NCBI RefSeq assembly: GCF_030028105.1
Contig: NC_092376.1
Location: 50,888,935 to 50,952,934 of the forward strand
Source of the DNA: Mobula birostris
Lineage: Eukaryota
Reading direction: 5' to 3'
DNA: 64,000 bases
The translations under genes and the position numbers were made by a program. The stretch's first letter is position 1; every line of letters starts with the position of its first letter. Below are positions 38,806-63,439 of this stretch, piece after piece. Below the pieces are notes generated by a model. That model saw nothing but the letters and a program-made list of their open reading frames with translations, was not told the origin of the DNA and made no database searches.

Positions 38806-39074
38806 GTAATTGTATGGAACAGTGCTATTGCTGTGGAACTAAAAGGACTGGGGAATTAAATTAATACTTGACAGCACTTGAATTTAGGTTGTTAAAGATA
38901 AAACATGCCATTGAAAATTCAGTTACATCTCATGCAGCAAATATACATTCTTACATTTTTTACAGTAAGAATATTTAGTGAATACTGTACTCCATTTGCT
39001 CATCAGTTCATTGGTTTCTGATTTCACTTTGCAGAAGGTTGCAACAATCACTATGAACCACTTCTGCGTTTTCG

Positions 39075-39372
39075 TATACTTATCCACTAATGGGATGGGA
39101 ACGTTGCCTGCAATACTAGCATTTACTGTCTACCCTTAATTGGCTTGGATCATGAAGGAATAAGCCAAATGGGCCTGGAGTCACCTACAGACCTGACTGT
39201 GCAAGGATGGCAGGCGGAGAGTAGTGAATTAGATGGGTTTTTACTTCAGTCCAGCAGTTTCATGGTCATCATTTTTGAGACTGCATTTTTATTGATTTTC
39301 CAGATATTTTTATTCAAGTACTCCAGTTTAAAATACCCAACTACTGTGGTGGAATTCAGACTTGTATACCAA
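39075..39372 (-). mobile_element. Deu-domain SINE (SacSINE1-like)
   Basis: The reverse complement contains gaccatgaaactgctgga...aaaaacccatctaattcacta...ctgccatccttgcacagtcaggtctgtaggtgactccaggccc (Deu domain). The tail ...ggtagacagtaaatgctagta is related to the LINE end near 57620. Confidence 0.65.
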
Positions 39373-39377
39373 CATGC

Positions 39378-39530
39378 ACCATAAGACATAAGGGCAAAAT
39401 GAGGCCATTCTGCCCCTTGAGTCCACTCTGCCACTCATTCATGGCCGATCTATGATCCCTCGACCCCATTCATCTGCCTTCTCCCGGCCACTTTTGATGC
39501 CCTTACTAATCATGAACCTATCATCATATC
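39378..39530 (-). mobile_element. Short CR1 3' end
   Basis: accataagacataagggcaaaatgaggccattc matches the tail family at 5661 and 41101. Confidence 0.8.
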
Positions 39531-39679
39531 TCTGGATAATGAAACTGACTTCCGGCTGCTACTCTAGTGACTTAACCAGTCAACTTCGGTGTTCCATTTC
39601 TCTCTGTAAGTACATACGCATTTACTCGAGAAACTGCTGACTGTGACCCTCACCTTTAAGTTGTAGATTTATAGAGATA

Positions 39680-39960
39680 TGGAAGCACAGAGCAGAGAAA
39701 CAGATCCTCTGCCCTACTATGTTCATGCTGACCGTTTACACTATTCCTATATTCATCCCATTTGAAAATTCTCTTCAATTCTCATCAAGCTCAATGATTC
39801 ACTGGGGGAAATTTACAATGGGCAATCCACATGTCTTTGTGACGTAGGATTTTACTGGAACATTCAGGGAATTGTCATAGAAAGAACACGCAAGCTCCCA
39901 AGGCCAGGATTGAACCTGTCTCTGGTAAAGTGAGGCAGTAGGTCTACACACTGTGTCATC
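39680..39960 (-). mobile_element. V-SINE-like, old
   Basis: ggggaaatttacaatgggcaat...catgtctttg...gcaagctcc...aggccaggattgaacctg...gtgaggcag. Confidence 0.6.
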
Positions 39961-40567
39961 CATAAGTTATAACAAAGTACTCGGATTAATGATGGGGAGG
40001 AATAATAGCTACATTATTGTGTTTGGCTCACTCAGTGAAAGTTGAGCACACATTTATATTCTTGGAAAGCACACCTTGTCTGTATTTCAGCTTGTTAGTT
40101 TGAAGCTGACCAATTTGTTATGTTCCTGTCATCCTCCTGCCTTTACATGCAGTACCAGTGATCCTTTACACACAAAGAAAACATCCTTTGCTTTCTAAAC
40201 ACCGAGACTACTTTTAAATGATCCAACACTGTGTGTTTTATTTAAAGTAACATTAATATTGTTTGTTTTCATTCTGTACAGGTCTTTGAAGATATTTTCT
40301 AAATAATATTTGATACTTCAAAGTGAACCATTCATAATCCTTTTGCATGAATTCAGTAAACATAACTAGCCAAGTTGCCAGCTGCAAATTAAATTGTATT
40401 TGGCTTCATTTTCAGCACAGTCTTTGATTACCAAGTGCCAATTAAAGCTATGTTCCAATCAAATTTTGTAATGACATAATTAATGGCATAGTTCTATGGA
40501 TGCAGCTTGAATTTGGTGTCATAACTCTTATAAGCTTCATTTTAGAGTTTGAGTTTATTATAATAAA

Positions 40568-40885
40568 AGACCATAAGGCATAGGAACAGAATTAGGCTAT
40601 TCAGCCTATTGCGTCTGTTGTGCCATTCCGTCATGGCTGATTTATTATCTCTCCCAACCACATTCTCTGTAACCTTTGGCACCCTGACTAATCAGAACTA
40701 TCATCCTCTGCTTTCAATATACCCAATGATTTGGCCTCTACAGCGGTCTGTGGCAATGAATTCCACCAATTCACCACCTTCTGGCTGAAGAAATTATTCC
40801 TCGTCTCTGTTTTAAATTGACTTCCCTCTATTCTGAGGCTGTGCCCTCTGGTCTTAGACTCACCCACTATAGAAAACATCCCTTC
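40568..40885 (-). mobile_element. CR1 3' end (about 320 bp)
   Basis: MFSIVGESKTRGHSLRI...NFFSQKVVNWWNSLPQ; tail agaccataaggcatagg. Confidence 0.85.
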
Positions 40886-41100
40886 CTATGGTGGTGATTT
40901 TGATGTAAGTTGAATATATCCTAATTTTATGAAGTTTGATGGCATTCATCACAGACTATTGATTAACCTTGTCCTAGTTTGTATCCCCAAGAGGCAGGGC
41001 TTGTTGCCAGAGAATATAGCCATTGATAAAAAAAAAAGAGGTCAGGAATAACATAAAGAAAAAACAAAAAAAAATTATGAAGGCAAAATCAAGTGAAGAT

Positions 41101-44100
41101 CATACCATAAGACCATAAGACAAAGGAGCAGAAGTCAGCCATTCGGCCCATCGAGTCTGCTCCGCCATTTTATCATGAGCTGATCCATTCTCCCATTTAG
41201 TCCCACTCCCCCGCTTTCTCACCATAACCTTTGATGCCCTGGCTACTCAGATACCTATCAATCTCTCCCTTAAATACACCCAGTGACTTGGCCTCCACTG
41301 CCGCCCATGGCAACAAATTCCATAGATTCACCACCCTCTGGCTAAAAAAATTTCTTTGCATCTCTGTTCTGAATGGCCGCCCTTCAATCCTTAAGTCATG
41401 CCCTCTCATACTAGACTCCCCCATCATGGGAAACAACTTTGCCACATCCACTCTGTCCATGCCTTTCAACATTCAAAATGTTTCTATGAGGTCTCCCCTC
41501 ATTCTCCTAAACTCCAAGGAATACAGTCCAAGAGCGGACAAACGTTCCTCATATGTTAACCCTCTCATTCCCGGAATCATTCTAGTGAATCTTCTGTGTA
41601 CCCTCTCCAATGTCAGCACATCCTTTCTTAAATAAGGAGACTAAAACTGCCCACAGTACTCCAAGTGAGGTCTCACCAGCGCCTTATAGAGCCTCAAAAT
41701 CACATCCCTGCTCCTATACTCTATTCCTCTAGAAATGAATGCCAACATTGCATTCGCCTTCTTCACCACCGACTCAACCTGGAGGTTAACCTTAAGGGTA
41801 TCCTGTACGAGGACTCCCAAGTCCCGTTGCATCTCAGAACTTTGAATTCTCTCCCCATTTAAATAATAGTCTGCCCGTTTATTTCTTCTGCCAAAGTGCA
41901 TAACCATACACTTTCCAACATTGTATTTCATTTGCCACTTCTTTGCCCATTCTTCCAATCTATCCAAGTCTCTTTGCAGACTCTCTGTTTCCTCAGCACT
42001 ACCGGCCCCTCCACCTATCTTTGTATCATCAGCAAACTTAGCCACAAAGCCATCTATTCCATTATCCAAATCATTGATGTACAATGTAAAAAGAAGCAGC
42101 CCCAACACGGACCCCTGTGGAACACCACTGGTAACCGGCAGCCAACCAGAATAGGATCCCTTTATTACCACTCTCTGTTTCCTGCCAATCAGCCAACGCT
42201 CTATCCACATATGTAAATTTCCCATAATTCCATGGGCTCTTATCTTGTTAAGCAGCCTCATGTGTGGCACCTTGTCAAAGGCCTTCTGAAAATCCAAATA
42301 TACAACATCCACTACATCTCCCTTGTCTAGCCTACTTGTAATTTCCTCAAAAAATTGTAATAGGTTTGTAAGGCAGGATTTTCCTTTAAGGAATCCATGC
42401 TGAGTTCTGCCTATCTTGTCATATGCCTCCATGTACTCTGTAACCTCATCCTTGACAATCGACTCCAACAACTTCCCAACCACCGATATCAAGCTAACAG
42501 GTCTATAATTTTCTTTTTGCTTCCTTGCCCCCTTCTTAAATAGCGGAGTGACATTTGCAATCTTCCAGTCCTCCGGAACCATGCCAGAATCTATCGACTT
42601 TTGAAAGATCATCGCTAATGCCTCCGCAATCTCCACAGCTACTTCCTTCAGAACACGAGGGTGCATTCCATCTGGTCCGGGAGATTTATTTACCTTTAGA
42701 CTATTCAGCTTCCTGAGTGCTTTCTCTGTCGTAATTGTGACTGCGTGCACTTCTCTTCCCTGCCACCCTTGAGTGTCCGGTATACTGCTGATGTCTTCCT
42801 CAGTGAAGACTGATGCAAAATACTCGTTCATCTTTTCCCTCTTAATGACCTTCTTAGTTTCCTTTTGTAAGCTTTTAAAAACTTCCCAATCCTCTGTCTT
42901 CCCACTAATTTTTGCTTCCTTGTATGCCCTCTCCTTTGCATTAACTTAGGCTTTGACTCCTCTTGTCAGCCACGGTTGCATCCTTTTTCCATTTGAAAAT
43001 TTCTTCTTTTTTGGAATATACCTGTCTTGCACCTTCCTCACTTCTCGCATAAACTCCAGCCACTGCTGCTCTGCCGTCTTTCCCGCCAGTGTCCCTTTCC
43101 AGTCAACTCTGGCCAATTCCTCTCTCATGCCACTGTAATTTCCCTTACTCCACTGAAGTTTTCAAATTTCACAGTGAACTCAATCATGTTATGATCACTG
43201 CCTCCTAAGAGTTCCTTCACCTCAATCTCTCTAATCACCTCCGGTTCATTACACAATACCCAATCCAGTACAGCCGATCTCCTAGCGGGCTCAACAACAA
43301 GCTGTTCTAAAATGCCATCTCACAGACATTCTACAAATTCTCTCCCTTGAGATCCAGTGCCGACGTGATTTTCCCAATCCACTCGCATGTTAAAATCCCC
43401 CACAATTATCATAACGCTGTCCTTCTGACAAGCCTTTTCTATTTCCTGTTGTAATTTGTAGTTCACATCACTGCAGCTGTTTGGAGGCCTATAAATAACT
43501 GCCATCAGGGTCCTTTTACCCCTGCTGTTTCTTAGCTCAACCCATAAAGATTCTGCACCTTCCGATCCTATATCACCTCTTTCTAATGATTTAATATCAT
43601 TTCTTACCAGTAAAGCCACGCCTCCCCCTCTGCCTACCTTCCTATCCTTCCGATACACCGTGTATCCTTGGATGTTCATCTCCCAGAGACATGCATCCTT
43701 TACCCAGGTCTCAGTGATGGCCACAATATCATATCTGCCAATCTGTAGCTGTACAACAAGATCATCCACCTTATTTCTTATGCTGCGTGCATTTAAGTAC
43801 AACACCTTAAGACCAGTATTTGATACTTTTTGCTTTGATTTCACTGCAACTTTATTGCACTGCAACTCATCCCAGTGGCTACAAATTTGCCCCATCACCT
43901 GCCTGTCTTTCCTGATATCTTTACTGCTCACTATCTTAGATTTATTTCTGTTTTTCCCTTCCTCCACTCTATCATTCCGGTTCCCATCCCCCTGCCATAT
44001 TAGTTTAAACCCTCCCTAACAGCTCTATTAAACCTTTCCGCCAGGATATTTGTCCCCTTCGGGTTCAGGTGTAACCTGTCCTTTTTGAACAGGTCATACT

Positions 44101-45213
44101 TCCCCCAGAAGAGATCCCAATGATCCAAGAATCTGAAGCCCTGCCCCCTGCACCAGTCTCTCAGCCACGCATTCATCTGCCTGATCCGACTACTCTTGCC
44201 CTCGCTAGCATGTGGCACAGGTAGCAATCCTGAGATTACTACCCTGGAGGTCCTGCTTCTCAGCTTCCTTCCTAAATCCTGGAAATCTCTCTTCAGGACC
44301 TCCTCCCTTATCCTATCTATGTCATTGGTACCAACATGTACCAAGACAACTGGCTGCTTGCCCTCTCCCTTCAGAATATTCTGGACTCAATCCGAAACAT
44401 CCCGTACCCTGGCACCTGGGAGGCAACACACCATACGGGTATCTCTATCAGGCTCACAGAATCTCCTGTCCGTTCCCCTGACTATGGAATCCCCTATGAC
44501 TACCACATTCCTCTTCTCCCTCTTTCCCTCCTGCACAACAGTGCCAGGCTCAGTGCCAGAGACCCGGTCACCGTGGGCGTCCCCTGTCAGGTCATCCTCC
44601 TCAACAGCATCCAGAACAAGGCATTTGTTGCGGAGGGGGACAGCCACAGGTGTGCTCTCCACTATCTGGGCATTTTCCTTCCCTCTTCTGACAGTGACCC
44701 AGTTTTCTGACCCCTGTAGCCTAGGGATGACTATCTCCCTGTAGCTCCTGTCTATCACCTCTTCACTTTTCCTGATAAGCAGTAAGTCATCAAGCTGCAG
44801 CTGCAGATCCCTAACACGGTCTCTGAGGAGCTGCATCTCCGTGAACCTGGCGCAGATGTGGCCATCAGGGAGGCTGGAGGTCTCCCAGGATTCCCACATC
44901 TGACACCCTGAACAAAGCACTAACCCTGCAGGCATGCTATCTAATTCTACAGGAATGAAACAGGAAAAGTAAGTCTACTCACCCACTTACCTTGCCAAAC
45001 AGATGAACTTTTTAAACCGTTAGCTCATACCATTAGCTGTGTGAGCCCTGCTGTTCCTGTCTGTCTGGGCCGATTCACCAAGGGGGAATAAAAAGAGTCG
45101 GTGCTTCGCTCTTGCATCTTCCCGTTTACCGCTGAAGCCTGTTGAAGCCAAAGCCCTACACTCTGCTACCACTCAGTCCGCTGCCCGCTCCGACAGCTGC
45201 CCGCTGTATAAGG
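41101..45213 (-). mobile_element. Near full-length CR1 LINE: 5' UTR, ORF1 (Zn finger, coiled coil, SGNH esterase; 44000-44935) and ORF2 (APE-RT) with a few lesions
   Basis: ORF1 reads CSGCQMW...VVIGDSIVRG...CLPGA...HVGTND...DRLHLN. ORF2 reads LYLNARSIRNKVDDL...IYRPP...GDFN, with a 396-aa RT segment (DFQKAFDKVPH, GVPQGSVLG, FADDTK). Tail repeats ccataagaccataagac are at 41105-41121. Confidence 0.96.
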
Positions 45214-45598
45214 TGCAAAGAATAGCGGATGCAAAGAATACAACTACAAAGAATAGCAAAAAGTGTTAAAATGGTTGTTAAGAGCTACAAAGAGCATGGA
45301 AATCAATTTACAAGGCATAACATAATCAACACCAATACTTTTAAAAGGGAATCAAGAGCAAAACTTGTTCCTTAAATATGGATAGCTTCGACATCGTACG
45401 TTTAATATAAGAATATGGCCGGCACATAATATTAATTTGCATCAGTGCTTACATTAGAAGAAAAGGATGCCTTACGAGACATCCTAGGGTAGCTAATATC
45501 AAACAACAAGAATTCTGCAGGTGCTGGAAATTCAAGCAACACACATCAAAGTTGCTGGTGAACGCAGCAGGCCAGGCAGCATCTGTAGGAAGAGGTAC

Positions 45599-45634
45599 AG
45601 TCGACGTTTCAGGCCGAGACCCTTCGTCAGGACT
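45599..45634 (-). ncRNA. Minimal type I hammerhead ribozyme motif (canonical core)
   Basis: Minus strand AGUC-CUGACGA-AGGGUCUCGGCCU-GAAA-C-GUC^-GACU: helix I AGUC/GACU, both conserved boxes, a short helix II and a palindromic ACGU in place of helix III. Confidence 0.8.
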
Positions 45635-45679
45635 AACTGAAGGAAGAGTGAGTAAGGGATTTGAAATCCTCCTTCAGTT

Positions 45680-45715
45680 AGTCTTGACAAAGGGTCTCGG
45701 CCTGAAACGTTGACT
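45680..45715 (+). ncRNA. Minimal type I hammerhead ribozyme motif, U3/A8 core variant
   Basis: AGUC-UUGACAA-AGGGUCUCGGCCU-GAAA-C-GUU^-GACU. Confidence 0.6.
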
Positions 45716-46588
45716 GCACCTCTTCCTACAGATGCTGCCTGGCCTGCTGCGATCACCAGCAACTTTGATGTGTGTAGCTAATATCAAATCAGGGATAAAT
45801 GAAGCAAAAATAATGGAATGAAAAGTGATACTAAAAATTTCTATTCCAAGATTTTAACGGAGGTTAACATTCAAGATGCCCTATCCAGATTACAGAAGAT
45901 TGTCCCGATTCAAAAAATGTTCCTCTAAACTGGGAAACTGTACATATCATTTCATTATTTGCAAGAAGTGAGAGGGTGAAGTTGGAGAATAAAGACCCAA
46001 CTAGTCAGGCATCAGTGGTCCAGAAATTACTTGGATCTATAATTAAGGCAAGAGAGCCTGGACAACATGAAATTTACATCTCCCTTCTCTTAACTGCAAT
46101 CAAAGGAAGATCAAGCCTTCATTTTAAATCTTAGAACAATAAATGCAAATACATGGAGTTAGGTCATAGCTGAACCATGAACAACTAAGAAGCTTGGGTA
46201 GACGGCCTATTATTGCTCTGTTTTTCCTTTATATCTTCACAATGGTCAACATGAAATTACCATTTTGCCATTGGATTTACCTGTTTCATGCACAATCTCT
46301 GCTTTTCCAATCTGATGTATATATAATACAGAACTGCAAGAACATTGTCATCAAAAATAGCGGAGCAAGTAATTCATCAACCTGCTAAAATGAACAATAA
46401 TAAGATAAATCCAGTGAAAGCAAATGCATCGACTTTAGCATGAGAGCATGATGCAGGTACATTCAAATCAGTTAAGACTGCAATGTTCTACCCACAAGCA
46501 TTTGAGAACATGCCATGTAACTGGGAAAAAGAACTAGTTGTGTACCAGCCTGGCATGGTCACATTCCTAGAACTCAAACTTTCACCTG

Positions 46589-46797
46589 ACATAGAAACAT
46601 AGAAACATGGAAAACCTACAGCACATTACAGGCCCTTCGGCCCACAAATTTGTGCTGAACATGTCCCTACCTTAGAAATTACTAGGCTTACCTATAGCCC
46701 TCTATTTTACTAAGCTCCATGTACCTACCTAAATGTCTCTTAAAAGACCCTACCATATCCACCTCCACCACCGTTGCTGGCAGCCCATTCCACGCAC
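46589..46797 (-). mobile_element. Short 5'-truncated CR1 (about 210 bp)
   Basis: Tail (acatagaa)n; SAWNGLPATVVEVDMVGSFKRHL. Confidence 0.88.
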
Positions 46798-46871
46798 TAA
46801 GACATCTCAGATATTCACCATCAATATCTCCAGATGTGTCTGGCCCACCATCAGGATCTGCACACCAGATG

Positions 46872-47450
46872 TTTAAGTTCAATGTAAATTTATTATCAAG
46901 TTACTGAACATGTACTACCTAGAGATTCATTTTCTTGCAGGAAAAAAAAACAATCGAAATTTGCAAGAAAATATACCTAAACAAAGACTGACAAACAAGC
47001 AATGTGCAAAAGAAGGCAAACTGTGCAAACAAAAGATAATATTGAGAAGATGAGTTGTAAAGAGTCCTTAAAAGTTAGTCTGTAGGTCATAGAATCAGTT
47101 CATAGTAGTGCTGAATTAAGTTATCCACTCCTGTTCAGGAGCCAGATGTTTGTAGCGTAATAACTGTTCCTGGGGTGGAACCTAAGGCTTCTGTATTTCC
47201 TGTCTGATGGTAGTAGCTGGAGGAGGTCAAGGCCTGGGTAGTGGGAGTATTCGACGATAGATGTGCCTTTTTATGGCAGCGCTCAGTGTATGGACTGGGC
47301 TTTATCCATTACTTTCTGTAGTTTTTTCCATTCCTGGGCATTGGTGTTTCCATGATGCAGCCAGTTGGGATACTCTCCATTGTGCATCTGTAAAAATTTG
47401 TCAAAGTTTTTGGTGACATGACAAATCTACACAATCCTCAAAGAAAACGA
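46872..47450 (-). mobile_element. Rex1/Babar-like 3' fragment
   Basis: Tail ttcaatgtaaatttattatcaa. gatactctccattgtgcatctgtaaaaatttgtcaaagtttttggtgacat corresponds to MSPKTLTNFYRCTMESI. Confidence 0.75.
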
Positions 47451-48059
47451 GCAGTGGCATTCAGTTAGGAGACTGGTGTAGGTGCTGGCAAAATTGATGC
47501 TGCATTCCCTTAATTCCCATTGTAACACATAAAAGATGGGCAAGGACATCTCCTGCACAATATCACCTACCACTGTTCCTTAATTGATGGATCTGTAACT
47601 GAAACATATTTACAAATTACTATGATGAATAAATTAATGGCCAAGTCGTGAGTCAAATATCTGGAAGATGTCTTCACTGCAGCAAACAATGGAGGGAACC
47701 AGGGGTCTTATGGAGAGGGAAACTGAAATTAATTAATATCATTAAAGAGAACATAGTATAGAAATTGAAGAAATTCTGTGGACTTAATAAACTGTGTCTC
47801 GGGGTTCTAAGAGAGTTGGTTACTGAGATAGCAGATGAGCTGATGATCAGCCAAAACTTTCTGAATCTTGAAGTCCCAGCAGATTGATGAAACACTTACT
47901 ATTGAACAGTTATTTTCCTAATTTTCAAGTATTATTGGCCTTTAACATATAGTTTAAATTGATTATTAACACCTGGGGTATGTATTATAATTGGTATTTA
48001 AATATGTAGATGATGGGAATCAGAAATGCACAAAATTTCTATTGGATCAATATTTTGTA

Positions 48060-51000
48060 TGTAACCCTCAGTTCAGCTATTGGCTTAATCTAGAGAATGA
48101 TAGCCCCGGCCTGGCCAAACTTAAGAAATCTCATTTGGGTGGATGCTGTGCAATGTGTGCCCTGTTACAAATCAGTACCACAAAATAACAAACAGCACAT
48201 GATATGCGATTGAATGATTGAGGTTTATAATTCTTAATTTGACTATATGTTTAGTAAATGTCCTGGGTATGACTCTAAACTGCAACTGGTGATGAGGCTC
48301 TGACTGGGGACTTTCAGAGCTTTGGGGAAAGTGGAGTTACCCCTTAGTCATCCATTGCTCCCAGGGCCGCTCTGACCCGGAACGGTAGCATCTGCAAGGG
48401 TTCCTGCTCAGGTTATGAGCGAAGGCCAACAGCAGATCCGGCAGGTTCAGTAACTGAACTTATGATGGAGAAGGCGGATGAGCTACGACCTCAAATGACA
48501 ACGGCTATAGTACAGGTGGATGAACATTTGGGAAGAGAAATGGTGATTTCTTCAGTTCGCCCAATGGAAGGCAATAGCAAATCACCGTTGTTAGATACTA
48601 GGTTTCCTAGAATCTATTTGCTAAGAAAACCATGGTCAAACTCACAAAATGCATCACACAACAACAGCGTCAAGAGGATCTTCAAGACAATTCTGAAGAC
48701 GCTTCGCTCAGTAGGATTGATTCTGGGCAGCAGGGGATCCCCGACCATCATCAAGCTGCGGCTCATAAAATTCAAGTAACACAAAAGAAAATTATTGCCT
48801 CTTGGAATGCAAGAACCCTATATCAAGCAGGAAGATTGGACAATGTGATAATTGAAATGGAAAGACTAAAAATTAACATCATGGGAATTAGCCAAGTTTG
48901 TTAGACGGGTGCTGGTTCATGTCAGAATAGGAATAAAACACTAATTTATTCTTGTGGAACATCCCATACTAATGGAGTAGGAATTCTTAAGGATGAAAAC
49001 ATGGCAAGAAGTGTTTTAGGACATTGGGCAATATCAGAGAGAGTGCTCCTTGTTAGATTCAGAGGACAACCATTTGATTTAGCAATTATACAGGTGTATG
49101 CACCAAAAACGGATGGAACAAATGAGGATATAGATAAATTCTATGAAGAGCTTGAACAAGCAAAGAATAGATGCAAATCTCAAGATATTGTTATTGTCAT
49201 GGGAGATCTAAATGCTAAAGTAGGACAAGGTGCTAATGGAAATATAGGAAAATTTAGACTCGGGGAAAGAAATGAGCGAGGTGAGAAATGGGTAGAATGG
49301 TGCAACATGAATAATCAGGTCATTATGAATACCTACTTTAAAAACCATCCAAGACACTTGTGGACCTGGAAAAGTCCGGGTGATAACACTAGAAATCAAA
49401 TTGACTTTATTACCATAAACCAAAGATTTAGAAACTCAGTGACTCAATGCAAAACATATCCAGGTGCAGACTGTAATAGTGACCATAACCCAGTAGTATA
49501 ATGTTATGTAAAAGTAAAACTTAAAAAACTAAAGAAGCAAAAACCTGAACAATCCTTTGACTACTCGCAATTAATAAAGAAGAAAACTTAAGACAAAAAT
49601 TTACAATTGAAGTAAGGAATAGATTTCAAAGTCTAGAAATAGAATCTGTTGAAGATGATAGCAATCATGTAGAAGTGAAGTTTAACTCTCTGAAGGATAC
49701 CTTGGTAGAATCAGCAAAGTCAGTGATTCCTAAGAAAGAAAAAAAGCACAAAGAATAAATGGATGACAGATGAAATCAAAACTCTAATGGAAGAAAGGAG
49801 ACTGATGAAAGCAAATCCTATAGAATATAAGTGCTTAGATAAAAAAGTTAAAAGTTTATGTCAAAAAGCCAAAGAAGAATGGTTAAACCAGGAATGTGAG
49901 CAACTAGAAAGAATCCCTATTACTGATCTAAAAAGGATACATCAACAAATCAAGAATATCACTGGTAAAATGCTCCTCTGTTCTTCAGGTGGATGTTTGA
50001 AAGCAAAGGATGGTACCATTATCATGGAAATGAACAGATGGACTAAGTATATTTAGGAATTGTTTAAAGACGATCGAGGCGAAAAACCAAAAATTAAGAA
50101 GAACATTGAAGGTCCAAGTATTTTAAAATCTGAAGTTCATAATGCAATAAATAAGAGGGGAAAGACAGCAGGTCCTGATGAATTAGTAATAGAACAAATT
50201 ATCGCCCTTGAAGATTATGGAATTGAAAAACTTACTGATTTAATCAATGACATTTATGAGACTGGAATAATACCAGAAGAGATGAAAAATCAGTATTTAT
50301 CACTCTTTCTAAGAAAGCTGGAGCAATAGAATGTGAATTACATAGGACCATAAGTTTAATGAGTCATAGCACTAAAATACTTCTAAGAATTTTGATGACA
50401 AGAGCCAAAAGTAAGATACAAGCTGAAATAGGCAAAGAACAACGTGGTTTTGTGAAAGACAAAGGTACAAGAAATGTGATATTGGTGTTAAGGATACTAT
50501 CAGAATGAGCTATTCAAGTGCAAAAAGATTTGTTTGTTTTATCGACTACACAAGAGAATTTGATAAAGTGAAGCACAATAAGTTATTTGAAATATTACAG
50601 GAAACTTGAGATCTAGATTCGAAAGACCTCCGCCTAATCAGATACCTGTACTGGGAACAAACTGCTGCTGTAAGAATAGATGGAGAAGTGAGTCAGTTTA
50701 CAAAAATCAAGAGAGGCGTTAGACAAGCGTGTGTTTTCTCCCCTGATTTGTTTAATGTGTACAGTGAAACAATATTACAAAAAATAAGAGACATCTTGGG
50801 AATCAAAGTTGGCGGTGGAAACATCAATAATTTCAGTTATGCAGATGACACTGTGTTAATTGCATGTACAGAGGAAGAACTACAAAACTTAATTGAAATA
50901 GTTGTTGAAGAAATTGCAAAAATGGGTCTATCTATCAATTGCAAAAAGACAGAATGTATGGTGATATCCAGAAAGAAGGAGAATCCTATATGCAGGCTGA

Positions 51001-52026
51001 GAAGAAACGGGGAAGACATAAAACAAGTACAGAACTTTTGCTACTTAGGAAGCTGGGTGACATCAGATGGCAGGTGCGACATGGACGTCAAAAGAAGAAT
51101 AGGGATGGCAAAAGACACCTTTATGAGAATGAAGAGTATAATGATGAACACTAAGCTAGGCATGACAACCCGCCTCAGAGTACTGAAATGTTACGTTTAT
51201 CCAGTTATGTTATATGGATCAGAATGTTGGACAATATCTAGTAACATGAGGAAACGAATTGAAGCAGCAGAGATGTGGTTTTTGAGGAGGATGCAAAGAA
51301 TATCATGAACGAAACAAATATCTAACAAGGATGTCATGAACAGAGCAAGCACAAAAAGAGAAGTAATGTATGAGATCATGAAAAGGCAACGTAACTTCAT
51401 TGGACATGTAATTAGGAAAGAGGAGTTAGAATGCACGGTAATTATGAGAAAGATTGAAGAGAAGAAAGCAAGAGGAAGGCAAAGACAAATGATGATGGAG
51501 ACACCCAGCAGCCAGAGAACTGGAAATGAATACCAATGAATTGATCCACTTGACCTGAAACAGGAGTGTGTGGGCCATGGCAGTCAAAGCTCAAACTGGG
51601 CACGGCACCTGATGATCATGATGATGATGTTAGTAAAGAAACAAAAAACAGAAAAGGGCCCATTCTCATGAAACAGTCTAATGCGCAATGTTGGAGCACA
51701 CAGTGTCGTCCATTTGTTCCCATCATCCTCCTCTGAGTGTAGCCGACCCTCAGACCCTCGGACCCTCGCTCCTCAGTACTCTCCGTCCGGCAGTTTACCG
51801 ACTCTCTCCATTCGTGTCCTCTCTCTTTATCACTCCACGACAAAAGTCTGCAAAATCCCTGCTCCCATACACACAGGAGAGAACAGCATCCCACTCATTG
51901 GCTAACATGCCCCCGTTATCTCCAGTCATAACCCAAACATTACTGCTACAGAGAAACCATTACCTTAGCAGTGAAACGTTACAGAGAGGCCATTACATTA
52001 GCAGTGAAACCTTATAGCGTGTTACA
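48060..52026. mobile_element. Solo LTR (about 600 bp; 48060-48258 plus 51630-52026) split by an RTE insertion
   Basis: Termini TGTAAC...GTTACA. A 4-bp TSD TGTA is at 48056-48059 and 52027-52030. An internal tandem duplication of about 33 bp lies at 51948-52015. Confidence 0.82.
48259..51629 (+). mobile_element. Near full-length RTE-clade (BovB-like) LINE with a single APE-RT ORF, frameshifts and stops
   Basis: ASWNARTL, RGQPFDLAIIQVYAP, MGDLNAKVG, NQIDFI, SDHNPV, GVRQAC..SPDLFN, SYADD, FCYLGS and LYGSECW. The tail is (GAT)n at 51611-51629. TSD TTAGTAAA is at 48251-48258 and 51630-51637. Confidence 0.95.
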
Positions 52027-52748
52027 TGTATACAACTGGTCAATTTCTGTATAAAAATTGAATTTCTTTGTTCAAACTTCTGAGCAGTGTGTTCTCCTTG
52101 TGAACAGGTAAATAAAGTGTGATTGAGGAATGGGTGCAGTAGTCAGAGTCCAGTTAATCATAGATGACCAGGAGCCTGTGAGATGATTGGAAAGATGTGC
52201 TCAATAATACCAAAGGTTGAAACAAGTTGATTAGAGGGAATCTATTCGCACTGGGGAAAGGGTCACTATCTAAGCTGAGTAGAAAGATATCAGTTGTGAC
52301 ATAAAGAAAAACACTTTCGCGCACAAGTATTCATGATCTAGAGCTTGCTGCCTGAATAAGTGGTAGAAATATAGTCTATCTCTGCTTACAAAGGGGAATT
52401 GAATAGTTGACAAGGAGGGAAAACATTGGGCTACTGGGAAGGATCAGGGTCGTGGACTGTCTGGATTATTTCGAAACAGTCTGGATGGGCTGAATGGCAT
52501 CTTTTCGAGCTGAAATTAATTTATGACACTGAGCAGAATTGTTTAAAACAGGTGCTGGAGGAAACAGCAGAACTGATTTTTAGTACAATATATAATCCGA
52601 TGGCATGGCACACTTATAATTCAATCATGAACTTCAGAGTGGGAGATCAGTCTTGGTTCGATGAGCTGTGCAGATGAGTTTGCCAGAGAGGCACCGAAAA
52701 AAAAACAGCATAATGACTCATTGCCATTTCCCACTTGAATTTCTGCAG

Positions 52749-55660: not shown

Positions 55661-56158
55661 CAGAAAAAATGAATACCTAATAAATTACAATTGACATAAG
55701 AACAGGTTACCCTTGGATCCAAATTCGGTTGAAAAGAGATGAATTCCAGGGATGAGGTGAGAGGAATTGCTCTTGACATCAAAAAAACTTTGGTAAAGCT
55801 AAAATCAGAGGGCATCCAATAGAAGCACTCTAATAGTTAGAGCCATTTTTTAAAGGCAGTGTCCTGGGCTAGTATCATCCTCAACTGCTTCATCAATGAC
55901 CTACCATGTATGATGTCACTAACAAAGCTATTGCTGGTCAGTTTCATTTCCACAGCTCCTCAGCAACTGAGCCCATAAATAGCAAGACCTCAGCAACATT
56001 CAGATAGGAGGTGATAAGTAACATTTATGCCACAGAAACATCTGCCATTGACCGTCTCCAAGAATAGGATAGCTGTTGTGGAGTAAAAGGATCACTCACA
56101 GTCTAATCTGTCATCCCATTTCTTTATTTTGATTTCTGTCAACTAAAGTTCTTGATTG

Positions 56159-56792
56159 ACCCGACGCAGACTGGGAGACCGCTTTGCTGAACACCTACGC
56201 TCTATCCGCCAGAGAAAGCAGGATCTCCCAGTGGCCACGCATTTTAATTCCACATCCCATTCCCATTCTGACATGTCTATCCATGGCCTCCTCTACTGTA
56301 AAGATGAAGCCACACTCAGGTTGGAGGAACAACACTTTATATTCCGTCTGGGTAGCCTCCAACCTGATGGCATGAACATCAACTTCTCTAACTTCCGCTA
56401 GTGCCCCACCTCCCCCTCGTACCCCATCTGTTATTTATTTTTATACACACATTCTTTCTCTCACTCTCCTTTTTCTCCCTCTGTCCCTCTGAATATACCC
56501 CTTGCCCATCCTCTGGGTTCCCCCCCCCTTGTCTTTCTCTCCAGACCTCCTGTCCCATGATCCTCTCATATCCCCTTTGCCAATCACCTGTCCAGCTCTT
56601 GGCTCCATCCCTCCCCCTCCTGTCTTCTCCTATCATTTTGTATCTCCCCCTCCCCCTCCCACTTTCAAATCTCTTACTAGCTCTTCCTTCAGTTAGTCCT
56701 GACGAAGGGTCTCGGCCTGAAACGTCGACTGTACCTGTTCCTAGAGATGCTGCCTGGCCTGCTGCGTTCACCAGCAACTTTGATGTGTGTTG
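56159..56792 (+). mobile_element. Penelope-like element, 5'-truncated (GIY-YIG endonuclease C-terminus, pyrimidine-rich 3' region, terminal repeat)
   Basis: TRRRLGDRFAEHLRSI...PVATHFN...LRLEEQHFIFRLGSLQPDGMNI (stop at 56401). CTTGATTG is duplicated at 56151-56158 and 56793-56800. Confidence 0.92.
56695..56730 (+). ncRNA. Minimal type I hammerhead ribozyme motif in the Penelope terminal repeat
   Basis: AGUC-CUGACGA-AGGGUCUCGGCCU-GAAA-C-GUC^-GACU, with predicted cleavage after 56726. Confidence 0.8.
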
Positions 56793-57399
56793 CTTGATTG
56801 TTTCTTCACTTACCTATTCACTTTATAGGTGCAGACCATACACTCTCTCTAATACATTTTCATACATGCAGAGAAATAAGGAATTATAATGGAACTATGA
56901 ATATAATTTTACTGAAGAAGTAGTTTATGACAAGAGGGTGCATGATCAGTCATTACAGATGTCATCCATCTGCCCCTGCCTCTGGTCCAGGTCTAGTGGT
57001 CCATTGACTAAAACATCCTGTTAACTTCTTCAAGGGCATTGTATCCTAGGAACAGGTCAATTATCTTCAAATTTAGCTATTCTAGAGCATGGCAATTATG
57101 CTATTGTCCCACGCTGCAGACTTGACATTCAATGAAATTACTCCCTGTCAAAATCTCAGGGTCACCATCAAAACTGAAATGAACCTCACACAGATTACAA
57201 TAGCATGCCCACCTGCTGACACCCCAAGGCTTACCCTTTTCCAGAACGCATGATAGAATACAATCACTTGCCTGGCGGATTGCATCCTTAACAATTTTTG
57301 AAAATGCTGACTCAACCCAGGACAAAACAAGCTGTTTAATTGGCACCTCATCAGTCATGCTAAACATTCATTCCTTCCACAATTTGTGCAATGCTGTTG

Positions 57400-61500: not shown

Positions 61501-62031
61501 GCTGTGAATATATGAAATTCTCAAAATTGGAGGTATTCATATGGGAGATATTTTTGGAATTGACAGATATAAAATTAAGTTGGAAAAATTAACTGAATAC
61601 AGAGATGTGACCAGGATCATAGTGAATGGATTTCACTGGCCATTCATCCTCTAGGTTTTTTATATTACAACAGCATTTCACTCGTAGCACTATCCATTGG
61701 GAAATTTTGAAGTTGTGAAATATTAACAAAAGTTTTACTTTTTTATTTCTTATGTACTTACTAATTGCAATAAATAGAAATCTAATTCAGAGATGAGATC
61801 CTAAAAGACAAGAATAGGGTAAGTTTTTGCTGCTCAGAAATGAGTCTTTTATGTACCATTGCAGAGTCAAACTAAAGAAGGAAAGGAAAATAATTAGTTC
61901 AGTGCCAAATCATTGACAGAAATCAAAATAAAGAAATGGGATCATGACAGATTAGACAGACTGATAAAAATGGCAGATAATAAAAATAAAATTCTATTTA
62001 TTTTAAAAAGGTATGCAATGTTTAAAATCTG

Positions 62032-62107
62032 AAAGTAATTTTCAAGGTTTTTTGTTTAGAATGTGCTCTTTTGCAGATTCTAAACAAAAAACCTTGAAAA
62101 TTACTTT
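62032..62107. repeat. Near-perfect 76-bp palindrome (35-bp arms, 1 mismatch, 6-nt loop)
   Basis: AAAGTAATTTTCAAGGTTTTTTGTTTAGAATGTGC-tctttt-GCAGATTCTAAACAAAAAACCTTGAAAATTACTTT. Confidence 0.95.
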
Positions 62108-63439
62108 TACAATGTATAGTACAGTATTCAGTATATTTACATCAGATGTGGTAAATTATGCAGTATAACGTGGGTCAAATTGCACAACAAATTGAGTGCC
62201 ACATTAAGACATAACATCCATTCTACTATAAGATCTTGCCTTTGCAAATGCATCTTGAGAACAGTTAAAGTAGTTAGGTAGGAATACAATTTCCATTTGG
62301 CTCTGCTGGTGGTCAAACATTACCTTAGGAAATCGCAAGGGGATAATTTACCTTTGCATAATAGTAATAAAAACTGTAAATGTTGCAAATACTCAGCAGG
62401 TCAGATATGAGAAACAGGGTTAACATATCAGATCAATGGCCTTTTCAACACAGCATGCAGTCTGACCTGTCCAATATTTCTCACATTTTCTCTTTTTTAC
62501 TTTGGAATTTAGGTATTTGGAGTCATTTTATTTATTTTGTATTCCTTTTTAATGTGCAGGTTATGAATGAGTAGGAAAATCCTACCATTTAATTGTTTTT
62601 TCCATAGTAAGCTTGAAAGTTTTGAATTTGCTTCTTATTAGTTTAAGAGACTTTTATATTATTTATGGTAGTTTCTTGTTTTGTTAATGGTGTGTTCAAT
62701 TGTTTACTCTTATTCTAGATATTGTTTGCAATAATTAACGTCCAATTTAAATAGTGCAACATTCAAAGTTCCCCATTCTACTGAACATGGCTTGAATGAT
62801 TCAGTTTTCATTCCTACAAACTGTGTTGACCTCGTTATTTTCTCTCATTTTACTAATGGAACTGTCATGTAAATGGATGTTTATTACAGTTGCCAATTTT
62901 GTACTGCCTTTAGAGATGTTTCTGTGAATGACACATAAATTCTTGACAAAAGACATTTAATAATGATCAATTTTGCTCTTGATGTGAACGTTATGAGTTT
63001 TTTTAAAAAGTTGTAATTAACCTGCCACCAAATAATGTCAAACTGAAGGATAGTCTACAAAAGTGAAAATGATTGCATGTCACACTTGTTCTTAATTTGT
63101 GATGCTCGGCACGCTGCAACATGACTAATGATATTCCACAGTGGAGCTTCCAAACCCATACTCAGCCAAAATATTCAAGGTCACAATAGAGAATATCGGC
63201 AAAACTATGCTGTGATGCAAAGAATGGAACTCACCTGATGACACAATATTTGACTTGTGAATACCCCAAATACAATGCACTCGCGTGGAAATCCTTTGGG
63301 AGAGAGAAGGTTTCTTTGGGAGTCAATGGGAAGGAGCTATGCAGGTGACCAGATCTAGGATATCCCTTTGACCACGTGACTAGAAACTATACATCTTTCT
63401 TGCTCATATTGTGAATGGAAAATGGAGGGTCACTGAGTA

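Follow-up and report, generated by a model that had tools for sequence, protein, structure and literature searches.

A hammerhead-bearing fold-back in a guanylate cyclase intron of Mobula birostris is very probably an ordinary Penelope-like integration product

Within the 64,000-nucleotide stretch of Mobula birostris DNA that we analyzed (the window), a small fold-back with a hammerhead ribozyme motif on each strand raises the question of whether it is a functional RNA, a member of a mobile family or the scar of a single insertion. We concluded that it is very probably an ordinary, dead integration product. It is best explained, with considerable confidence, by a single Penelope-like insertion of head-to-head truncated copies, likely made by two-strand priming, and it is most likely non-coding, decaying and without a role. 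The insert (45504–45773) lies roughly midway along a 13.9-kb intron on the + strand (38806–52748, with the donor at 38806 and the acceptor at 52748), about 6.7 kb from each splice site. The host is a soluble guanylate cyclase alpha gene, for whose protein the best match among solved structures was human alpha-1, and the intronic position between its exons on the + strand, as first proposed, was confirmed.

The 270-bp insertion is real and is enclosed by an exact 15-bp direct repeat at 45489–45503 and 45774–45788, the left and right target-site duplications (TSDs), which like the loop have no strand assigned. From left to right, it consists of a 37-nt tail of a Penelope end (45504–45540, − strand), a left arm of 104 bp (45541–45644, element sense on the − strand), a 25-nt loop (45645–45669) and a tail-less right arm of 104 bp (45670–45773, + strand). 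Both arms are pieces of the Penelope terminal repeat and differ by 5 mismatches per 104 bp, and the left arm was 96% identical to a Penelope copy at 56663–56797 in the window. The loop and its named palindrome stood as given in the original prediction, while the arm length of 106 bp is reached only when two TSD bases are counted in, and the anatomy of two arms plus a loop had overlooked the tail, which lies outside the left arm only and makes the insert asymmetric. In the loop, the left (tail) copy continues for 22–23 bases and is accompanied by a 3-nt insert, the reverse complement of bases lying just upstream, and a 6-bp palindrome is centered on the junction. The first 6 bases of the right TSD match the element's own continuation at five positions. 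No direct repeat of the unit was found within the insert, which contains one inverted pair only. Its predicted fold reached −211.5 kcal/mol (z = −27.6), and none of 200 shuffled sequences was equally stable.

The segment 45504–45773 is a true lineage-specific insertion. The original prediction had called for a check of related species for an empty site, and such a site was found in three organisms: organisms B, D and E each contributed a single contig that joins 45488 directly to 45774. Exactly 285 bp are missing from these contigs, which derive from three studies and carry a single copy of the TSD 15-mer, and their flanks differ from the window by 1.9% (B), 7.3% (D) and 5.9% (E). The comparison covers these three organisms, the contigs of organism C not spanning the site. 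Both filled junctions were present in contigs of organism A, and two runs of one sample of this organism gave only filled-site pieces among the matches listed. Since organism B has the empty site, the insert is younger than the split from B or was polymorphic at that time. Many pieces of the same repeat family were found in organisms B, C, D and E, so this family was active in several related species.

An exact match to the hammerhead 26-mer of this family occurs 32,793 times across the 4.0-Gb genome. A much larger insert of 4,060 bp (L141), flanked by a 13-bp TSD, has one arm of 3.3 kb that carries the tail and an inverted arm of 739 bp that lacks it. Its 558-aa frame matched RVT_1 (E 7e-7) and gave a weak GIY-YIG match (E 0.0075), in both cases just under or under the Pfam cut-off, and a CX4CxxC linker precedes the GIY-YIG motif in L141 and in L139. 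Judged from these sequence matches, the parent is a Penelope-like element with a reverse transcriptase (RT) plus a GIY-YIG endonuclease at the C terminus in one frame, and its linker conforms to the CX2-5CxxC pattern of the Neptune/Nematis type as given in the accessible part of PMC8557442. The features expected of an EN+ Penelope-like insertion were all found, namely an RT plus GIY-YIG parent, a hammerhead in the pLTR, a TSD with an empty site, and an inverted 5′-truncated copy with a one-sided tail of 30–40 bp (here 37 nt), which supports the Penelope origin and the inverted termini proposed for this locus.

Longer head-to-head inserts were inspected in 12 hand-picked candidates and 4 loci taken from the 26-mer matches. 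Most were inserts of 0.5–4 kb bounded by the same pair of ends and flanked by a TSD, and the sizes of head-to-head inserts run continuously between about 200 bp and 4 kb. The script's anchors found no arm pair in L070. L140 was rejected as a single insert, being composed of two unrelated copies without a TSD, and so was L139, which has tails at both ends, other sequence between them and no convincing TSD, and which may represent two insertions. The copies at L029, L077 and L083 lie in or beside the terminal repeat of a related Penelope family that is about 75–80% identical, and targeting of related Penelope ends is possible. In the window itself, a longer 5′-truncated copy of the same family but another subfamily (56152–56797, + strand) lies in the next intron and retains an endonuclease end, a stop and a terminal repeat with an intact hammerhead core; no inverted arm was seen there, and a Pfam search of its 81-aa endonuclease end (56156–56398) gave no match. 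An unrelated AT-rich inverted repeat with 44-nt arms, 89% complementary, and a 6-nt loop was found at 62023–62116.

Fold-backs similar to the insert number about 1,000 in the genome. We obtained 578 matches with 0–45 nt and 442 with 46–150 nt between the arm anchors, which are lower bounds requiring exact 14-base anchors, with a few loci counted twice; the present locus was itself missed by the anchor search because of its C3U change. The original prediction had left open a one-off integration scar or a non-autonomous family moved by the Penelope machinery, and had proposed searching for the same arm/loop junction at other loci with different TSDs. A genome search with the junction 32-mer, allowing up to 2 mismatches, returned only the locus itself and one differently joined locus, and none of all 32 loci listed in the closest class repeats this junction. 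The 85 distinct loci that we then characterized included this one, L002 and a hand-picked pair; the others were the first 50 of the 578, 15 of the 442 and 30 of the 32, with duplicates removed and 4 loci missed by the script's pattern left out. The set is not random, as exact anchor matches were needed and most loci are on two contigs. These loci contained 80 different loops, and 76 of them had TSDs of 11–19 bp with 75 different sequences, compared with 0 of 85 in the swapped-flank control. A junction that is unique among some 1,000 differently joined fold-backs indicates an integration product and not a family, as the original prediction had itself reasoned. The scar option therefore holds, while a family with this junction found no support.

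That this locus belongs to a non-autonomous fold-back family which Penelope proteins mobilize as whole units thus appears very improbable, even though two pairs of loci show that whole-unit copying or conversion seems to occur on rare occasions. L098 and L099 (G000:C1:199077480 and 203625792) are 363-bp fold-backs, 97.5% alike, that share one complex junction and also two variants confined to the right arm but differ in flanks and TSDs, and L028 and L029 (G000:C1:130680042 and 130715985) share one junction, a joint with a 1-nt insert, with different TSDs and with the tail on opposite arms. However, the L098 junction has just 2 copies genome-wide, 4.5 Mb apart, L028 and L029 are 36 kb apart, and local gene conversion accounts for both pairs; conversion between nearly palindromic sequences would explain them, and so would the occasional re-copying of a hairpin RNA. 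The most repeated simple junction tested had 5 copies, whose subfamily variants and tail sides are not the same, and the junction of the present locus is single-copy, whereas in a MITE-like or retrozyme family an identical unit and junction would recur at multiple sites flanked by differing TSDs. Other candidate families were rejected: L021/L047 belong to the 5-copy junction, L030/L112 and L040/L114 have joints with 1–2 nt overlaps and differing variants, and the flanks common to L123 and L124 identify a segmental duplication. For this junction in this assembly, the family is largely refuted.

A functional ambisense RNA that is cut, circularized and replicated like a viroid or retrozyme is scarcely credible, although the rod-like fold with one motif per strand does recall such agents. 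The − strand motif (45597–45636, with C3 at 45630 and a predicted cut after 45603) has the conserved core, helices I (5 bp) and II (about 3 bp) and the palindromic helix III stub of a minimal type I hammerhead, and its core is intact. The gene-sense motif (45678–45717, + strand) carries three core changes, C3U (45684), G8A (45689) and C17U (45711), two of which are CpG decay. Of the proposal that each arm holds a minimal type I hammerhead, the presence of a motif on each strand stood, but the + strand copy is not intact. These calls rest on a motif scan built from the Cervera 2014 description; an Rfam scan of 43000–48500 gave no match to hammerhead families, and its four miRNA-hairpin matches and one snoRNA match were all below gathering scores. 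The U3-A8 pair of the + strand copy is a natural variant in other Penelope-like elements (PLEs) according to the accessible part of PMC4209133, a point in favor of an ambisense RNA, but the double change was seen in 27 copies compared with 22 expected from independent decay (derived from 298 and 2,423 single changes; Fisher p 0.32). A selected compensatory pair was accordingly rejected, and the combination looks like chance decay. The transcript of either strand contains a single hammerhead in its own polarity, preceded by a near-perfect antisense copy that is transcribed earlier. In the predicted folds, pairing probabilities of the hammerhead helices fell below 1e-19 in each of the two full transcripts, making these helices form cost 63–67 kcal/mol, and the isolated arms likewise did not favor the monomer hammerhead, so that both motifs are predicted to be trapped in the insert's own hairpin in read-through RNA. 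The two motifs also point away from each other and therefore cannot excise a unit, and no tandem unit exists, whereas an ambisense replicon has an active ribozyme in each polarity that releases a unit-length circle. Minimal hammerheads were moreover inactive as monomers and weak as dimers (accessible part of PMC4209133) and required protein (PMC11167929). With diverging motifs and a mutated gene-sense copy, the original likeness to viroids and retrozymes proved superficial.

Nor does the duplex itself argue strongly for a role, and its co-option to regulate the host gene through ADAR or Dicer is quite improbable. The roughly 100 bp of double-stranded RNA anticipated in the pre-mRNA corresponds to a predicted duplex of 104 bp in gene-sense RNA, with runs of 21–34 pairs, which together with the intronic location would suit such a role; however, a duplex of this kind is expected from the geometry and holds for very many loci. 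The insert is missing in three relatives, one of which has 98% identical flanks, the divergence of its arms is ordinary (12 of 42 fold-backs were as high or higher), and the splice sites are each some 6.7 kb away. Two presumed-RNA runs of organism A yielded family-wide pieces only and left the unique flanks of the insert uncovered, an outcome that counts neither for nor against expression. Incidental editing of the duplex is plausible, yet would not amount to a function.

The fold-back population also bears on how such inserts were made. Exactly one arm carried the tail in 83 of the 85 loci, both arms in none and neither arm in 2, and the tail-less arm ended within a narrow zone in 70 of the 83. 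A minority of tail-less arms (L004, L015, L033, L034, L046, L047 and L049) ended 40–55 nt earlier, at reference positions 80–98, perhaps because a weaker start site was used or because priming relied on homology to the target. The arms agreed in 47 of 50 loci at a 50:50 subfamily site, the present locus being one of the 3 that disagreed, and rare variants were common to both arms in 8 cases compared with 0.24 expected; the variants thus suggest that both arms of fold-backs stem from one source. Among 56 simple joints, the tail arm was longer in 23, shorter in 25 and level in 8, and with complex joints included (n = 83) it was longer in 29 and shorter in 50. The joints of the 85 loci had overlaps of 1–5 nt (33), were blunt (7), or contained inserts of 1–14 nt (35) or larger (10). 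Overlaps of 1–5 nt and short inserts at joints are a signature of end-joining by polymerase theta. In L055, L062, L064 and others, the ends of the arms supplied several short repeated pieces to the junction, a pattern like that of iterative templated end-joining.

These patterns could be produced if a 15-base staggered cut was made and both of its strands served as primers for reverse transcription, with a shared element RNA as template. Priming would have begun at the tail end from the top-strand nick and about 35 nt further inside from the bottom-strand nick, both cDNAs would have halted early, just past the hammerhead, and their 3′ ends would then have been end-joined with a 3-nt templated insert. 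The one-sided tail, the common source of the arms and the lack of a fixed longer arm would imply that both nicks prime one RNA at two start sites. In vitro, the lizard element PAc Poseidon nicked and extended both strands and used two start sites bounding the tail, with a predicted dimer (PMC11167929), and these results combined with the tail, the arm sharing and the joint types favor priming from both nicks followed by cDNA joining. We regard this route as moderately probable, as several points count against it. At this locus the tail arm extends further (23 vs 1 nt), the 3-nt insert resembles a local fold-back, the arms disagree at the subfamily site, and their divergence of 5/104 is somewhat high relative to the 1.9% flank difference to organism B. 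One RNA molecule would look the same as two RNAs from one source locus, and the two locus pairs described above appear to have been copied as whole units. Furthermore, PMC11167929 reported that the start site did not differ between the strands and that it lacked homology to the target, whereas the right TSD here shows the five-of-six match.

Self-priming, in which one cDNA folds back and is copied into the second arm, would lead to the same ordinary product but is unlikely. The idea was raised for inverted junction palindromes (accessible part of PMC3846280), and it would account for the variants common to both arms as well as for the longer tailed arm and the junction-centered loop palindrome of this locus. 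A fold-back copy cannot outrun its template, however, and the tail-less arm ran at least 3 bases further than the tailed one in 25 of the 56 simple joints. A cDNA without a tail cannot template one, and while the long arm is tailed in L141 and L142, the tail occurs on either side in other inserts; the narrow end zone of the tail-less arms also fits a start site. Returning to priming from two nicks, we tentatively propose that the hairpins are fossils of Penelope integration, in which a protein dimer would make a staggered cut of about 14 bases and start at two fixed positions on one RNA, separated by about 35 nt and one for each nick, and a transcribed hairpin would occasionally be re-copied whole with the tail on either arm, as in L098/L099 and L028/L029. 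If so, the inverted end and the one-sided tail would arise in a single event. The locus itself is minor, one dead insertion among about 1,000 of the same shape, but the population bears on how Penelope elements make inverted ends and tails, the formation of which is called undefined in the accessible part of PMC8557442, and the one-sided tail, common arm source and lack of a fixed longer arm yield a model of one start site per nick that the existing in vitro system could test. In the open literature, we found no proposal of one start site per nick and no paper on mini fold-backs of this kind in sharks or rays, and a search for Penelope with twin priming, judged by titles and abstract openings, gave none on the PLE mechanism. 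For annotators, a ribozyme on both strands of a rod calls for caution, being routinely produced by Penelope insertions.

The architecture is already known, as opposite-strand hammerheads, an inverted copy, a one-sided tail and a TSD are all in print (accessible parts of PMC4209133, PMC3846280 and PMC8557442). Endonuclease-bearing PLEs are described with a pLTR, an adjoining inverted 5′-truncated copy, a one-sided tail of 30–40 bp and a TSD (accessible parts of PMC3846280 and PMC8557442), and the insert resembles these complex insertions in its head-to-head inverted ends, single-end tail, TSD, 5′ truncation and junction palindrome. It differs in that both copies are only about 105–165 bp, which leaves no ORF, and in its TSD of 15 bp compared with 8–10 bp in the rotifer examples seen. 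Dual minimal hammerheads on opposite strands, about 100–700 bp apart, occur in metazoan PLE pLTRs according to the accessible part of PMC4209133; the motifs here share with those described there the short helix I, the extra base after position 9, the palindromic 15.1–16.1 and the absent helix III, but have a helix II of only about 3 bp, with G10.1-U11.1 replacing the usual G-C, and a U3-A8 combination, reported there as a variant, that looks like chance decay here. Compared with PAc Poseidon, the parent here has the CX4CxxC linker of the Neptune/Nematis type, and PMC11167929 contains no description of inverted products or of start sites being assigned one to each strand. The insert also invites comparison with L1 twin priming and with retrozymes. 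In twin priming, the second primer reportedly lands upstream on the RNA and yields an inversion without duplication, whereas both copies here span the same terminal stretch. What the two have in common is an inverted truncated insert between TSDs, explained for L1 by a second primer from the target (accessible part of PMC2837659). Non-LTR retrozymes (accessible part of bioRxiv 10.64898/2026.07.22.740005) are likewise non-coding, derived from PLE pLTRs and equipped with a type I hammerhead, but they consist of units repeated directly in tandem, each with its own hammerhead, while the present insert is one inverted pair.
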